DNA from: a virus
Taxonomy: Duplodnaviria; Heunggongvirae; Uroviricota; Caudoviricetes
DNA length: 31,280 nucleotides
Virus record (IMG/VR): IMGVR_UViG_3300045988_033906
Location: 1 to 31,280 of that record
Direction: 5' to 3' (one strand)
Shown: positions 27,139 to 30,312 of the stretch, piece after piece
How the letters are laid out: each line of letters opens with the position of its first letter
Position numbering within the stretch: position 1 is the stretch's first letter
Notes under the pieces: generated by a model
What the model saw: only the letters and a program-made list of their open reading frames with translations
Database searches by the model: none
What the model was told of the DNA's origin: nothing
Translations under genes and position numbers: made by a program

Positions 27139-27150
27139 GTGACATGTCAC
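27139..27150. repeat. 12-bp perfect palindrome GTGACATGTCAC, copy 3 of 3
   Basis: Overlaps the TGA stop of the 112-aa gene and precedes the RBS of the next gene. Confidence 0.5.
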
Positions 27151-27485
27151 ACTATTAATTTCGTTTCATGCCAGCCTTTGGTCACCCAGCATTGCGAGTC
27201 ACCATTACACGGGCATGAATTCACAGGAACTCTCTCGCCGCACTTACCGCAACGTTTTCTGCTGATCGATTTTATACGCCCGCGCACGCGTGCATCATCC
27301 TGGCGGATCAGTAACGCTATATACTCACCAAATTCGTAAGGCGCACGCCCGGGGCGACGTGTGGCACAGTTACGCTCCAGCATTTCAATTTCCTGAGCAT
27401 CAAGCACAATCTCCAGCTTACGTACACCGGATTCAGCTTGTCTGTCCCTCTGAGCGGCTTTGCGCTCTGCTGCTGATTTAGCCAT
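27147..27485 (-). CDS. small zinc-finger protein (possible regulator)
   Basis: ORF-track start 27488 is TTG; ATG at 27485. 112 aa; C-terminal Cys cluster CGKCGERVPVNSCPCNGDSQC; basic N-terminal half; overlaps previous gene by 8 nt. Confidence 0.5.
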   Translation of the reverse strand: MAKSAAERKAAQRDRQAESGVRKLEIVLDAQEIEMLERNCATRRPGRAPYEFGEYIALLIRQDDARVRGRIKSISRKRCGKCGERVPVNSCPCNGDSQCWVTKGWHETKLIV

Positions 27486-27760
27486 CAATATTTACCTTTA
27501 TCGCGAACACCTTTACCGGTTTATCGCCGAAGTGCGGATGTGTGATTGTCTTGATTTCATATCCGTCATACGGAACATCAATTCTACGGCTGGAATCGTC
27601 GCGCTTCGGATATCCCTTTGTGATAATCAGGCGGTCATATTCCCGGAACATAATTCGCTTATTCCAGTAGTCATTACACAAGCGATACTCTTCCGTTTTC
27701 TCTCCTCGAATCATGGCATCGAAGTATTCACCTTTAACGGCAAGTTGCAGGTTAGCCACG
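27478..27760 (-). CDS. ASCH/PUA-like small protein (DUF3850-like)
   Basis: GTG start at 27760 with perfect RBS AGGAGG 6 nt upstream (the upstream ATG at 27861 has no such RBS and overlaps another frame); 94 aa with motif KGEYFDAMIRGEKTEEYR typical of small ASCH-fold phage proteins (recalled). Confidence 0.5.
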
Positions 27761-28096
27761 GTTAACCTCCTGCTCAATATTTTTAAGGTCATTTTCCGCA
27801 TACAGTATTGCAGTCCTTGCTGCTCGCAACCGTGCTTTGGTGTTCTTTTCTTCGCGCTCAAGGTTGGCTACAGACTCGCGCAACTCATCACGGCGACGAT
27901 GGAGTTGCTCAATCTCAGTGACGATATGCTCACCATCAGTAGCTACCTGCAGGATGTGCTCGAAGGGGTCAATAACGCAGCCGCACTTTGTGCAACGAAC
28001 AACGCGATCAGTTTCACAAACCTCGATAGCCCGATGCTTACAGCTATGTTGTATGTAGTTTTTTCTGTCAGTTACATGATGTTCAGCAGTTTCTCT
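27753..28096 (-). other. open reading frame with no start codon encoding zinc-ribbon + coiled-coil protein; probable frameshifted gene or recoding site
   Basis: Stop-to-stop frame of about 114 codons (…NYIQHSCKHRAIEVCETDRVVRCTKCGCVIDPF…coiled coil…EQEVNRG) has no in-frame ATG or GTG ahead of the Cys cluster (only a late TTG); a 25-codon ORF with RBS GGAGG (28075-28149, MENESDNVISLVQPKRNEEKLLNIM) ends in a different frame just upstream. Confidence 0.3.
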
Positions 28097-28148
28097 TCAT
28101 TGCGCTTTGGCTGCACCAGAGAGATGACGTTGTCGCTTTCGTTTTCCA

Positions 28149-28892
28149 TTACTTCGCCTCCTGCGGCGGTTCTGGTAGCGGCATCCAGTGTGTGACGTTG
28201 CGGCTCTGCGTTTCGAAAAATTCATCACCATCACGGACGACATCAAAAAACTCACCGTCTCGATATTGCGCATAAAGAACGAATACACCATCACATAAAA
28301 TAATTACGTGCTGACCATCATCAGGCATTTGCTCACTACAGCTTATCCAACCACCCGGACTTACCGGAGAGTTGCCAGCCAGTCTACGCAAAACAGCCTT
28401 AACAGCCTCAATACGGTCATCATCAACTTTTTCTACAATATTGGAATTTAAATACTTCGAAGCCTTGCTATGCCAATCGCTGGTTTTAGGGTCTTGTCCA
28501 TCCATCAAACGCCAAGCTTCAGCGATTAACTCATAGCCAGTAACAGTGGCTTCCTGCGCATCACCAATCAGTTGTGTGATCTCTCTTTCAAGCATGCTTA
28601 GAGCGTTAGGCATTGGTTTTTCTTCAGGTACTACTGGCACTGGAGGGGCGGCATAAACAGGAATAACGTCCGATTGATCTTTATTGCTTTCATCCGTTAA
28701 AGCCCAGAATAATTTTCCAGCCGGATGTTTGAAAATATAAGCAACTTGTTCTGCTTCCAGCGATGCCAGCGCCAACTTGAACGCCTGAAGCTCAATGGCA
28801 CTGTTGGTATCCAGTCCAAACGGTAATTCATCACGATTGGCTTCGTATTCAGCGATAGTTTGCTTCAGCCATTCTTTGGTTAGTTCAGCCAT
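28149..28892 (-). CDS. DUF551-domain phage early protein
   Basis: ATG at 28892 with RBS AGGGA, 5 nt after upstream stop (ORF-track start 28943 would overlap the upstream gene by 47 nt). C-terminal block GGWISCSEQMPDDGQHVIILCDGVFVLYAQY...THWMPLPEPP is the DUF551 signature recalled from lambdoid prophages. Confidence 0.6.
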   Translation of the reverse strand: MAELTKEWLKQTIAEYEANRDELPFGLDTNSAIELQAFKLALASLEAEQVAYIFKHPAGKLFWALTDESNKDQSDVIPVYAAPPVPVVPEEKPMPNALSMLEREITQLIGDAQEATVTGYELIAEAWRLMDGQDPKTSDWHSKASKYLNSNIVEKVDDDRIEAVKAVLRRLAGNSPVSPGGWISCSEQMPDDGQHVIILCDGVFVLYAQYRDGEFFDVVRDGDEFFETQSRNVTHWMPLPEPPQEAK

Positions 28893-28896
28893 ATCC

Positions 28897-29388
28897 CTAA
28901 TTCCCCTTGATGCTGACTTTGACGCCAACCTTGCGAATCTCATCGGCGCATCTGTTCACGATACTCCGGTGAAACTCACAAAAAATTTTCGCCGACTGCG
29001 GCCCTAATGGGTGAACATCGTGCGCACGCGGCAGTACAACCTCCCGTGCTTCCAGTTCAGCAATGCGCTTACCCCCATCCGAGATAACACCTTCATAATA
29101 TTCACGCTGCTCGTTGAGTTTTGATTTTGCTGCCTCCAGTTCGTCCAGTAGTGCAATCACATCAGGGTCACTGTCATCAACTACTGTTACGCGTGATTTT
29201 TCATAATGCTCGTCGGCAAGTGTTCGACCAATTTTGAAATCTCCATCACCACCATAACTGGAGCAGGCATAAACGACATGTGCTCCAGATATACGCTGTA
29301 TTGACATTTCCTCGCCACAAACAGAGCATTCAGGTACTGGCTTATGTGAATAACGTTCCCGTAGCGCCTGATAATCAATCTTGCTCAC
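28897..29388 (-). CDS. phage early protein with CxxC zinc ribbon and coiled coil (Ea22-like, tentative)
   Basis: GTG start with excellent RBS AAGGAGG 7 nt upstream, overlapping upstream stop (GTGA); 163 aa; PECSVCGEEMSIQ... Cys motif. Confidence 0.5.
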   Translation of the reverse strand: MSKIDYQALRERYSHKPVPECSVCGEEMSIQRISGAHVVYACSSYGGDGDFKIGRTLADEHYEKSRVTVVDDSDPDVIALLDELEAAKSKLNEQREYYEGVISDGGKRIAELEAREVVLPRAHDVHPLGPQSAKIFCEFHRSIVNRCADEIRKVGVKVSIKGN

Positions 29389-29903
29389 TGGTTGCCTCCT
29401 TTGCGAAGCTGGGCAGCAAAGTCACGGATAGTGTCATCAAGGTCTGGGCACAACAGATGGTCAGCAAACATCTCCACCCCCTGCGCCCGTACTTCAGCCA
29501 GAAAATCATCGGTGGCAGGGGTATTTTCCATTAGTCGTTTTGACGTTGACCAAAGCGCGGAAAGCCACTCTTTATCAAACCATTTATCCTTATGGTGAAA
29601 CATTTCATCAACTGTCTGGTGGCAGCGGGATATCTCAAAAAGGCACCGCGCATTCTCCGCTGCCAGCGCCGAAAACTTCTCGTGTGCCAACTTAACAGCC
29701 GCATCAGCCTGCTTAATTGACTCAATCGCTTTCTGCTGGTCTTCGGCCAGCGCATTAGCACGCGCCAGTTGCACTTCCAGTTGCGTTGCCAAATCGCTGA
29801 TCAGCTTTGCCACACTGCGCATATCAACGGCACCACATTCTGCTTTCAGTTCCGAAGCCATCTCATGCCCGGCGGCAACTAACCCTTTGATATTACTTTC
29901 CAT
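29385..29903 (-). CDS. phage early coiled-coil protein (Ea22-like, tentative)
   Basis: 172 aa; RBS GAGGG before ATG 29903; alpha-helical Ala/Glu/Leu-rich N-terminal half. Confidence 0.5.
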   Translation of the reverse strand: MESNIKGLVAAGHEMASELKAECGAVDMRSVAKLISDLATQLEVQLARANALAEDQQKAIESIKQADAAVKLAHEKFSALAAENARCLFEISRCHQTVDEMFHHKDKWFDKEWLSALWSTSKRLMENTPATDDFLAEVRAQGVEMFADHLLCPDLDDTIRDFAAQLRKGGNQ

Positions 29904-29964
29904 CTTTACCCTCGCTTATCCACATAACTTATTGATTACATTGATAACTAAAAAGATCGTCGAT

Positions 29965-30312
29965 TCAGAACTCTTCGATGTTCCAGCCACCACCTGCTTT
30001 CTTTGGCTTAACCGTTACCCCGATGATTCGGAACGGATACTGATCTGCGGCGACTTTGGTTTTCACTCTGGCGTCATCGGTCCAGAATCCCCCTTTCACT
30101 TCGTGCAGCTCCATCTCGCCGGTGGCGAGCATCACAGCGAAATCGGGCGTATAGAACGTGTTATTAGCTAACCGCAGCTTGATACCCTCGAATCGATACC
30201 AGGCGATTTCCCCTGCACGTTTACGCTGCTCAAGGTGCTGGCAATACGCAGATTCTGTTTTGTTCATCTGGCCTGTTTTGAGTCGACCAAGAGCCTGTAT
30301 CTGTTTTCTCAT
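29965..30312 (-). CDS. hypothetical early protein, possible PD-(D/E)xK-type nuclease fold (DUF1064-like)
   Basis: 115 aa; RBS AGAGG; pattern ...YTPDFAV...ELHEVKG...KTKVAADQYP resembles small phage nuclease-fold proteins (recalled, unverified). Confidence 0.45.
   Translation of the reverse strand: MRKQIQALGRLKTGQMNKTESAYCQHLEQRKRAGEIAWYRFEGIKLRLANNTFYTPDFAVMLATGEMELHEVKGGFWTDDARVKTKVAADQYPFRIIGVTVKPKKAGGGWNIEEF

Follow-up and report, generated by a model that had tools for sequence, protein, structure and literature searches.

A probable early-operon cargo slot with a conserved frame and a hyper-mosaic core in a Uetakevirus-like prophage of Escherichia coli

We analysed a 31,280-nucleotide (nt) stretch of DNA (IMG/VR virus record IMGVR_UViG_3300045988_033906, positions 1 to 31,280; hereafter the window), which its DNA matches and gene order identify as a Uetakevirus (epsilon15/phiV10-like) prophage of Escherichia coli. 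The subject of this study is the group of small genes at 27147-30312, between the gene of a lambda-P-like helicase loader and the terminase gene terS. We consider it probable that this region is an early-operon cargo slot in which a conserved frame holds a hyper-mosaic core. In the organisation that we propose, the frame would comprise the gene of a DUF1064 protein beside the replication genes and, at the other end, those of a protein of probable ASCH fold and of a protein of 112 amino acids (aa), while the core would comprise the EaE-like, Ead/Ea22, DUF551 and phrog_1621 genes. An original prediction, made from the sequence of the window, had seen here a variable accessory slot of the early operon, and the comparison with relatives upholds it: 66 architectures were found among 69 slots, and coverage of the window slot by any one relative does not exceed 47%. 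The core varies widely, and the cluster is thus not an invariant set of housekeeping genes.

The top DNA matches of the window are Escherichia phage phiV10, the O157 typing phages 9 and 10 and other Uetakevirus members. Their annotated right-end early regions read P, DUF1064, eae-like, ead/Ea22-like with small open reading frames (ORFs), ASCH, 112-aa and terS. Related E. coli prophages have a layout equal to this phiV10-type right end, and the window keeps the synteny of the Uetakevirus slot (P - DUF1064 - ... - 112-aa - terS) with frame genes 96-99% identical.

Variation was examined in 80 IMG/VR contigs whose DUF1064 protein has 96-99% identity to that of the window; the DUF1064 gene always adjoins the replication genes. 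Taken from the end of the DUF1064 gene to the start of terS, the slot could be delimited in 68 of these contigs, which gives 69 slots with the window included, and slots were assigned to one architecture when they matched at 90% identity and 90% mutual coverage. The shortest slot measures 1855 nt and the longest 5090 nt (2.7-fold); that of the window has 3125 nt. No single locus in any of 5426 complete E. coli genomes covers as much as 80% of 24700-31280. Naive clustering of the slot ORFs yields many alternative-frame artefacts, and only clusters with profile support are cited here. Sharing along the slot is sharply bimodal, the flanks (DUF1064, the 5' end of the EaE-like gene and the 112-aa gene) being common to 82-100% of relatives. 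The fraction of related slots that match each segment is as follows:

29964-29765, intergenic DNA and 5' part of the EaE-like gene: 97-99%
29664-27765, variable core: 0-19%
27764-27465, ASCH gene: 48-60%
27464-27165, 112-aa gene: 82-91%
27164-26965, 70-aa gene: 32-49%

A recurrent 225-aa cargo ORF (L060:8677-9351, plus strand) occurs in 12 of the 68 related slots and is among the commonest alternative occupants. It matches phrog_9263/631 and no Pfam family, and its D...EAK-like motif suggests another PD-(D/E)xK nuclease.

Selection was estimated as the median pairwise ratio of non-synonymous to synonymous substitution rates (dN/dS) of window genes against related loci. The values for Ea22, DUF551 and EaE come from mosaic comparisons at 29-74% identity with saturated dS and are unreliable:

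DUF1064: 0.065
ASCH: 0.063
112-aa protein: 0.125
Ea22: 0.30 (unreliable)
DUF551: 0.45 (unreliable)
EaE: 0.66 (unreliable)

The description of the whole cluster as variable cargo does not extend to DUF1064, the ASCH-fold protein and the 112-aa protein. With medians of 0.06-0.13 these are conserved backbone genes and, by this measure, clearly functional genes under strong purifying selection. The phrog_1621 gene, corrected for a frameshift and compared with its homologue in the Shiga toxin (Stx) phage 933W, gives 0.21, and the core families appear to have been constrained, at least historically.

The boundaries between conserved and variable DNA can be located. A 34-nt joint at 28157-28190 consists of the last codons of the DUF551 domain and the Shine-Dalgarno sequence of the next gene. 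It is present as a single copy, with at most 5 mismatches, in 59 of the 69 slots. At least 8 different genes follow it, and it holds the Shine-Dalgarno sequence and the start codon in register before many different genes. The joint is conserved in 933W with unrelated sequence upstream, and the homology to 933W begins at the joint. Within the EaE-like gene, sharing drops from 97% (29864-29765) to 9% (29664-29565); thus a homology breakpoint lies inside this gene, at about 29650-29750. Other breakpoints coincide with gene starts, namely the ASCH start codon and the 112-aa gene. Breakpoints inside genes imply chimeric proteins. This pattern is that of the classical 'boundary sequence' view of modular phage evolution, developed in the literature on HK97/HK022 and HK620.

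The same genes also occur in other phage types and positions. In a prophage of E. coli ABWA45, the DUF551 and phrog_1621 genes (99.5% identity) are found in the early-left region next to torI/xis, downstream of an anti-RecBCD gene and of Ead/Ea22 genes. The 933W copy of the phrog_1621 gene, L0139, lies near attR, and the block of 70-aa, 112-aa and ASCH genes is 97.9% identical in the 115-kb phage PH444.

Gene order and edges of the slot

In the right-hand 6.5 kb of the window, every gene is encoded by the minus strand. Eight co-oriented ORFs are found between the helicase loader gene and terS. Six intact genes and one pseudogene fall within 27147-30312, and the eighth ORF is located just to the left. 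The features are, in the direction of transcription:

30430-31230, minus strand: lambda-P-like helicase loader, upstream anchor outside the cargo (Pfam Phage_lambda_P, 1e-56; phrog_109, 5.6e-92)
29965-30312, minus strand: DUF1064 protein, 115 aa (Pfam DUF1064; phrog_190)
29385-29903, minus strand: EaE-like protein, 172 aa (phrog_492)
28897-29388, minus strand: Ead/Ea22-family protein, 163 aa (Pfam Ead_Ea22)
28149-28892, minus strand: DUF551-domain protein, 247 aa (Pfam DUF551; phrog_60)
28157-28190, minus strand: 34-nt recombination joint, CACTGGATGCCGCTACCAGAACCGCCGCAGGAGG, at the DUF551 3' end
27752-28149, minus strand: frameshifted homologue of 933W L0139 (phrog_1621; alignments to 933W and ABWA45)
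27478-27759, minus strand: protein of probable ASCH fold (PUA-like), 93 aa (phrog_625)
27147-27485, minus strand: Cys-rich basic protein, 112 aa (phrog_536)
26917-27129, minus strand: acidic 70-aa ORF (phrog_1541, 2.9e-39)
26894-26911, minus strand: intrinsic-terminator-like hairpin, GCCGCCAACTATGGCGGC then TTTATTTTG (consensus scan only)

The tight coupling of small genes between a replication gene and the terminase, as first described, is confirmed by these eight ORFs with their overlaps of 1-8 nt; consecutive cargo-gene junctions measure -4, +4, -1, -8, -8 and +17 nt (overlaps negative, gaps positive). The prediction had also spoken of several GTG starts with strong ribosome-binding sites, and two genes are so built. 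The Ead/Ea22 gene begins with a GTG preceded by AAAGGAGG, in a GTGA overlap with the EaE stop codon, and the ASCH gene with a GTG preceded by AGGAGG, overlapping the preceding frame by 8 nt. The ATG of the 112-aa gene lies within its 8-nt overlap with the ASCH stop codon. For several genes the ORF listing offers longer TTG or ATG starts, and the shorter ones were chosen from homologue lengths and the starts of profile matches. In the DUF551 gene, for instance, the ATG at 28892 was used and the listed longer ORF begins at 28943.

The helicase loader gene is 97% identical at the nt level to those of phiV10 and related prophages. A consensus scan reported zero sigma-70-like promoters on the coding strand, where shuffled sequences lead one to expect 6.3 on both strands together. 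The 117-nt gap between P and DUF1064 (30313-30429) contains a GCGC-GATA-GCGC hairpin followed by a run of seven T, taken as a terminator by the annotators of phiV10, and a promoter-like pair (TTGATT-17 nt-TTTAAT) that the consensus scan did not report.

At the other edge, the terminator-like hairpin is found 6 nt past the last cargo stop codon and ahead of the terS ATG (~26839-26842). The true start of terS is uncertain. In relatives PGAP gives this protein 224 aa, from a TTG that overlaps the stop codon of the 70-aa gene. The N-terminal extension so obtained is of low complexity and spans the hairpin (window 26840-26920). The Pfam and PHROG matches of terS begin at residues 29-45, and the 594-nt terS annotated in typing phage 9 corresponds to the ATG at 26839.

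Frame and core proteins

The DUF1064 protein matches its Pfam family (PF06356) with 26.5 bits against a cut-off of 24.7, and phrog_190, labelled 'Holliday junction resolvase', at 2e-43. Its translation contains the PD-(D/E)xK motif E20...P56-D57...E71-V72-K73, so that the view of the original prediction, that none of the products is assignable by motif, was too strong. Feder and Bujnicki counted the DUF1064 family among the members of the PD-(D/E)xK nuclease superfamily, with T7 endonuclease I and TnsA-type folds as kin (PMC1189080). We regard the protein as a predicted PD-(D/E)xK nuclease, the product of a conserved backbone gene that borders the slot at its 5' edge. By analogy with Rap/NinG or RusA, we infer that it most likely resolves or trims branched replication and recombination intermediates.

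The 93-aa protein matches phrog_625 (2.2e-50), and its score with Pfam ASCH (PF04266), 14.3 bits over 23 aligned residues, is below the cut-off of 21.2. Its AlphaFold2 model has a pLDDT of 88. The top Foldseek matches of this model in PDB are all ASCH/PUA-like: 3iuw (probability 0.99), PH0355, YqfB (TM 0.56), ZmASCH and YTH. The best E-value is 0.016, none reaches E<=1e-3, and the TM-scores are about 0.5. YqfB is the E. coli N4-acetylcytidine (ac4C) amidohydrolase. An ASCH/PUA-like fold is thus probable from the model, with nucleic acid or modified bases as the probable ligand. Searches by tblastn and by ORF clustering place the gene in about 35 of the 68 slots with 91-99% identity, as a semi-conserved backbone gene.

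The 112-aa protein was found by the same two methods in all 68 slots. It matches phrog_536, labelled 'transcriptional regulator', at 2.3e-54. Its basic N-terminus is followed by a strand-helix-helix-like core and, towards the C-terminus, by a CxxC...C...C zinc knuckle. The family is narrow yet widespread: its homologues form 608 clusters at 90% identity, and an exhaustive hidden Markov model search of 1.84 billion representatives returned only 181 family members at 50%, all unannotated. In the family C79 and C82 are invariant and C99 nearly so. Few members give a ribbon-helix-helix (RHH) signal, and it is weak: of 59 members, two match RHH_5 (E 0.013) and one matches RepB-RCR_reg. The AlphaFold2 model is poor (pLDDT 60; helices 5-19, 30-41 and 52-70), and a fold search with it is meaningless. 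A role as DNA-binding regulator is plausible. In an Edwardsiella lambdoid prophage, a 77%-identical homologue lies between O/DnaB and NinG/Q. Two fusions of the 112-aa domain were seen in the P0366/P0062 proteins, one of 398 aa with weak, sub-threshold N-terminal matches to TerL ATPase and nuclease domains (E ~1e-3) and another of 181 aa with an Ead_Ea22 domain. Either may be real or an artefact of gene calling.

The 70-aa ORF (77 aa if the GTG at 27150 is used; pI 4.8) is an insertion/deletion variant present in 22 of the 68 related slots. It is absent from phiV10, typing phage 9 and the relatives L004 and L006, and present in L005 and L007. Its homologues carry a precomputed match to Pfam PF26882, and a local Pfam-A search gave no such match for the window protein.

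In the core, two Ea22-like proteins had been predicted, and one of them was retained. The 163-aa protein is an Ead/Ea22 protein (Pfam PF13935, IPR025153; 1.9e-23, 84 bits against 27, residues 2-88). It carries a CxxC...H...C segment at the N-terminus, then a coiled coil, and its C-terminal part is unrelated. The 172-aa protein has no detectable similarity to the 163-aa one (BLASTP E 0.3) and no Pfam match, and belongs to the EaE family: it matches phrog_492 at 5.9e-50, and its tblastn matches are annotated EaE or EaE-like, the best full-length one at 65%. The EaE-like gene is chimeric, with a conserved 5' part of ~150-250 nt and a remainder that is swapped between phages. The Ead/Ea22 gene is common to 0-19% of related slots, and a PDB sequence search with the C-terminal part of its product returned no Ea22 chain at E<=5. 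The Ea22 proteins of lambda and of Stx phages are reported to favour lysogeny, and Ea22 variants have a common N-terminus and coiled coil with unrelated C-terminal domains, one of which is DUF551, a portable domain (PMC7093339, PMC10834534).

In the DUF551 protein the DUF551 domain forms the C-terminal part (Pfam PF04448, 2.9e-21, 76.5 bits against 22, residues 181-244; phrog_60, 1.9e-50) and the N-terminal part is variable; relatives match the protein in patches only. For YfdS, a DUF551 protein of prophage CPS-53, a link to tolerance of oxidative stress has been reported, and its overexpression together with its neighbours has been associated with inhibited initiation of replication (PMC4776307). 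Sequence searches of PDB, with single sequences and with profiles, gave no significant match for the DUF1064, ASCH-like, 112-aa, DUF551, Ea22-like and EaE-like proteins.

Compared with the intact 132-aa gene of E. coli ABWA45 (WP_000426832.1, 99.5% identity), the phrog_1621 gene (27752-28149) is short of one C, between 28077 and 28076; identity to 933W L0139 is 80.6%. What remains after the frameshift is a 25-aa ORF (28072-28149) and an open frame whose first start codon is a TTG at 27883. The intact protein has a Cys-rich segment and a coiled coil (phrog_1621, 5.1e-52), and the gene is absent from all 68 related Uetakevirus-type slots. Programmed frameshifting at 28076/28077 was considered and rejected: there is no slippery heptamer, the 99.5%-identical allele is intact and the deleted C lies outside a homopolymer. 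This points to an inactivating mutation or a sequencing error, and by these comparisons the gene is a pseudogene unless the latter applies.

What the slot may do

In the reading that we favour, the region would be the distal cargo part of the early (replication) operon, extending from the helicase loader gene to the predicted terminator before terS. Uetakevirus, Stx/lambdoid, P22-like and P1-like phages would trade the core of this region by recombining at domain boundaries and at joints that are short and conserved, with chimeric proteins as the outcome. The core proteins would be non-essential accessory factors expressed early. In their most likely action, modelled on the published picture of Ea22, an oligomeric coiled-coil scaffold would present an exchangeable C-terminal domain to some partner from the host or the phage, and thereby bias development (lysis versus lysogeny) or host physiology. 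Gene content, phage type, conservation pattern, joints, frameshift and selection are observed in the sequences, whereas co-transcription, early timing and all biochemical functions are deduced.

Several points count against this account. Co-transcription and early timing rely on the gene layout alone, and the terminator annotated in phiV10 in the 117-nt gap, which has a weak hairpin, implies that the cargo may need read-through or a promoter of its own. The dN/dS values of EaE, DUF551 and Ea22 cannot separate relaxed constraint from diversifying selection. The prolysogenic phenotype transfers only weakly to the window protein, because only its N-terminal part is common with lambda Ea22. Finally, profile searches and one structure prediction gave no function for the EaE-like protein, the N-terminal part of the DUF551 protein, the phrog_1621 product, the 70-aa protein and the 112-aa protein.

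The original prediction proposed anti-defence cargo, which would mean that at least one protein of the variable core (EaE-like, Ead/Ea22, DUF551 or 70-aa) inhibits a host system of restriction, abortive infection or other immunity early in infection. For relatives, the idea of such cargo stands. Their slots contain a Lar-like restriction-alleviation protein in 3 cases (Pfam, 1.8e-9; phrog_599, host takeover category), a Mom-like DNA-modification protein in 5 (phrog_1384, 9.5e-42) and a PAPS-reductase-domain protein in 1; an HNH endonuclease also occurs, NinX is found in some relatives, and the slot of E. coli 2015C-4498 carries an S-adenosylmethionine (SAM)-dependent methyltransferase. The Lar, Mom-like, PAPS-reductase and methyltransferase genes indicate that the slot carries counter-restriction cargo. 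Also in line with anti-defence cargo in the window are the extreme turnover of the slot content, a position that implies early expression, the small size and acidity of the core proteins (pI 4.5-5.7) and the apparent dN/dS of the core, above that of the frame genes. However, searches of Pfam, NCBIfam, PHROGs and PADLOC (zero hits in the last) gave no protein of the window a match to a family of anti-defence, host takeover or defence, and none to Lar, Mom, Ocr/Ard or the PHROG category 'moron, auxiliary metabolic gene and host takeover'. For anti-restriction families this test had power, because identical profiles detect ORFs in the relatives' slots, but it is incomplete, as curated anti-defence profile sets (dbAPIS, AntiDefenseFinder) lay outside it. 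None of the 12 papers on DUF551 in the library searched links it to anti-defence, an accessory-gene screen (10.1101/2023.04.06.535777) makes no mention of Ea22, ASCH, DUF551 or DUF1064, and the vB_EcoP_ZX5 paper contains nothing on the slot families. Moreover, Ea22 is the only one of these families studied by experiment, the work on it points to the lysis-lysogeny choice, and one cargo gene is a pseudogene. For the window itself we consider anti-defence activity unlikely.

A bolder form of the favoured account is about as doubtful. It would make the EaE-like, Ead/Ea22 and DUF551 chimeras modular effectors, each with a conserved scaffold and interchangeable domains directed at different host immune or physiological factors, and the 34-nt joint and the EaE breakpoint built-in cassette-exchange sites for four phage lineages. 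Attached to it is a second possibility, in which the Q-less epsilon15-type phages would have their missing late-gene regulator in the invariant 112-aa zinc-knuckle protein. Its form as a dedicated late activator tied to the terminase was weakened by the Edwardsiella homologue, which is found in the middle of a nin region, upstream of Q; a dedicated late-activator role is unlikely because this homologue coexists with Q, far from the terminase.

It is very unlikely that all products serve replication, recombination or late-gene control and are required in every infection. Such a housekeeping module would fit the presence of DUF1064 in 80 of 80 contigs and of the 112-aa protein in every related slot, the strong purifying selection on both and on ASCH, the lack of a Q homologue in the window of an epsilon15/phiV10-type phage, and the place of the putative 112-aa regulator among the last genes ahead of the terminator and the late operon. 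Yet the core at 27770-29660 is common to 0-19% of relatives, slot length varies 2.7-fold, about half of the slots lack ASCH and about two thirds the 70-aa gene, one cargo gene of the window is frameshifted, and the Edwardsiella arrangement just described also speaks against it.

That the core is recombination debris, left by illegitimate and homologous exchange and free of selected function in the prophage, is likewise very unlikely: the frameshift at 28076/28077, the partial or frameshifted genes that PGAP flags in the slots of relatives and the breakpoints inside genes are offset by six intact genes out of seven in 27147-30312 with good ribosome-binding sites and coupled junctions, by widespread families under purifying selection where measurable (phrog_1621, 0.21; Ea22, 0.30, from saturated comparisons) and by a 34-nt joint that preserves the Shine-Dalgarno sequence and start register before many genes.

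As an accessory region of the early operon, our favoured reading, the slot offers a clean and quantifiable example of a cargo slot, with three constrained frame genes, near-unique cores and visible joints. With Lar-like and Mom-like genes among its occupants, it could reasonably be searched for further genes of counter-defence or host modulation, and it delimits a set of families of unassigned role: EaE, the N-terminal domains of DUF551 proteins, phrog_1621, phrog_1541 and phrog_536.

The window and its slot among known phages

The rest of the window also has the organisation typical of the genus, with terS/terL, structural genes (assigned from ORF sizes and order), a tailspike-sized ORF, an O-antigen acyltransferase and distal lysis genes. 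The lysis genes (holins, a GH19 endolysin and DUF2514, a holin-endolysin-spanin cassette) are located at 1813-3619, at the distal end of the late operon, which accounts for the lack of Q and lysis genes between the replication genes and the terminase.

Some features outside the slot deserve a brief description. A tRNA-Arg gene (anticodon TCT; 24070-24146, plus strand), the sole match of an Rfam scan, lies just downstream of terL (24774-26249) and adjoins a plus-strand ORF of the N4-gp49/Sf6-gp66 family (24345-24683); both are oriented against the late operon, as in O157 typing phage 9. An Acyl_transf_3 gene (3782-4873, plus strand), in a patch of low GC content (GC 0.30 at 4001-5000), is placed between the lysis cassette and a tailspike-sized 703-aa ORF with no family match (4907-7018), and probably represents an O-antigen acetyltransferase moron similar to the one in phiV10. 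On the far side of the lysis cassette, a candidate glycine-zipper/TraT-like lipoprotein (520-1038, plus strand) and a DUF5384 protein (1054-1593, plus strand) may be lysogenic-conversion or exclusion genes at the prophage end.

The closest known counterparts of the slot are those of phiV10 (p45-p55), typing phages 9 and 10 and Salmonella phage epsilon15, in which the gene order matches that of the window and the frame genes have 96-97% nt identity. The phiV10 annotation describes epsilon15p49 as similar to phiV10p55, the counterpart of the 112-aa protein. Only about 50% of 26900-30450 aligns with phiV10, however. That phage has 11 genes in the stretch, including a DUF550-type Ea22 and several VT2-Sa-like small ORFs, whereas the window has a different EaE C-terminus and Ea22, the DUF551 protein, the phrog_1621 pseudogene and the extra 70-aa gene.

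The exo-xis or 'ea' regions (lambda, L0139-L0142 of Stx phage 933W, eaA/eaD/eaE of P22-like phages) have the families Ead/Ea22, EaE, DUF551 and phrog_1621 in common with the window. Both consist of small, tightly packed, early, non-essential genes with swapped C-terminal domains. In contrast, the exo-xis genes belong to the early-left (PL) operon near int/xis, and those of the window follow the replication genes in the other early operon. The window has no counterpart of the C-terminal domain whose structure is solved for lambda Ea22.

The lambdoid nin region, from P to Q, resembles the slot in its place directly downstream of P, its structure-specific nuclease candidate and its dispensable small ORFs. 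Unlike it, the window slot gives no Pfam match to NinB, NinG/Rap, RusA, NinH or Q and ends at terS rather than at Q and lysis genes. The term 'nin-like', used in the original prediction, therefore applies in part: it agrees with the position of the Edwardsiella 112-aa homologue, but the variable genes belong to the early-left 'ea'/exo-xis families and not to nin families. Counter-defence accessory regions and morons, such as those of Rac Lar and Mu Mom, are likewise hypervariable slots between conserved genes. Lar-like and Mom-like genes do occur in some relatives, but no gene of the window is from a family with a demonstrated counter-defence function. In its parts the region is ordinary, as every protein family is already in Pfam or PHROGs and the whole is the annotated right end of phiV10-type genomes. 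In its combination it is a new mosaic of the accessory 'ea/nin-type' cargo slot known in Uetakevirus prophages.

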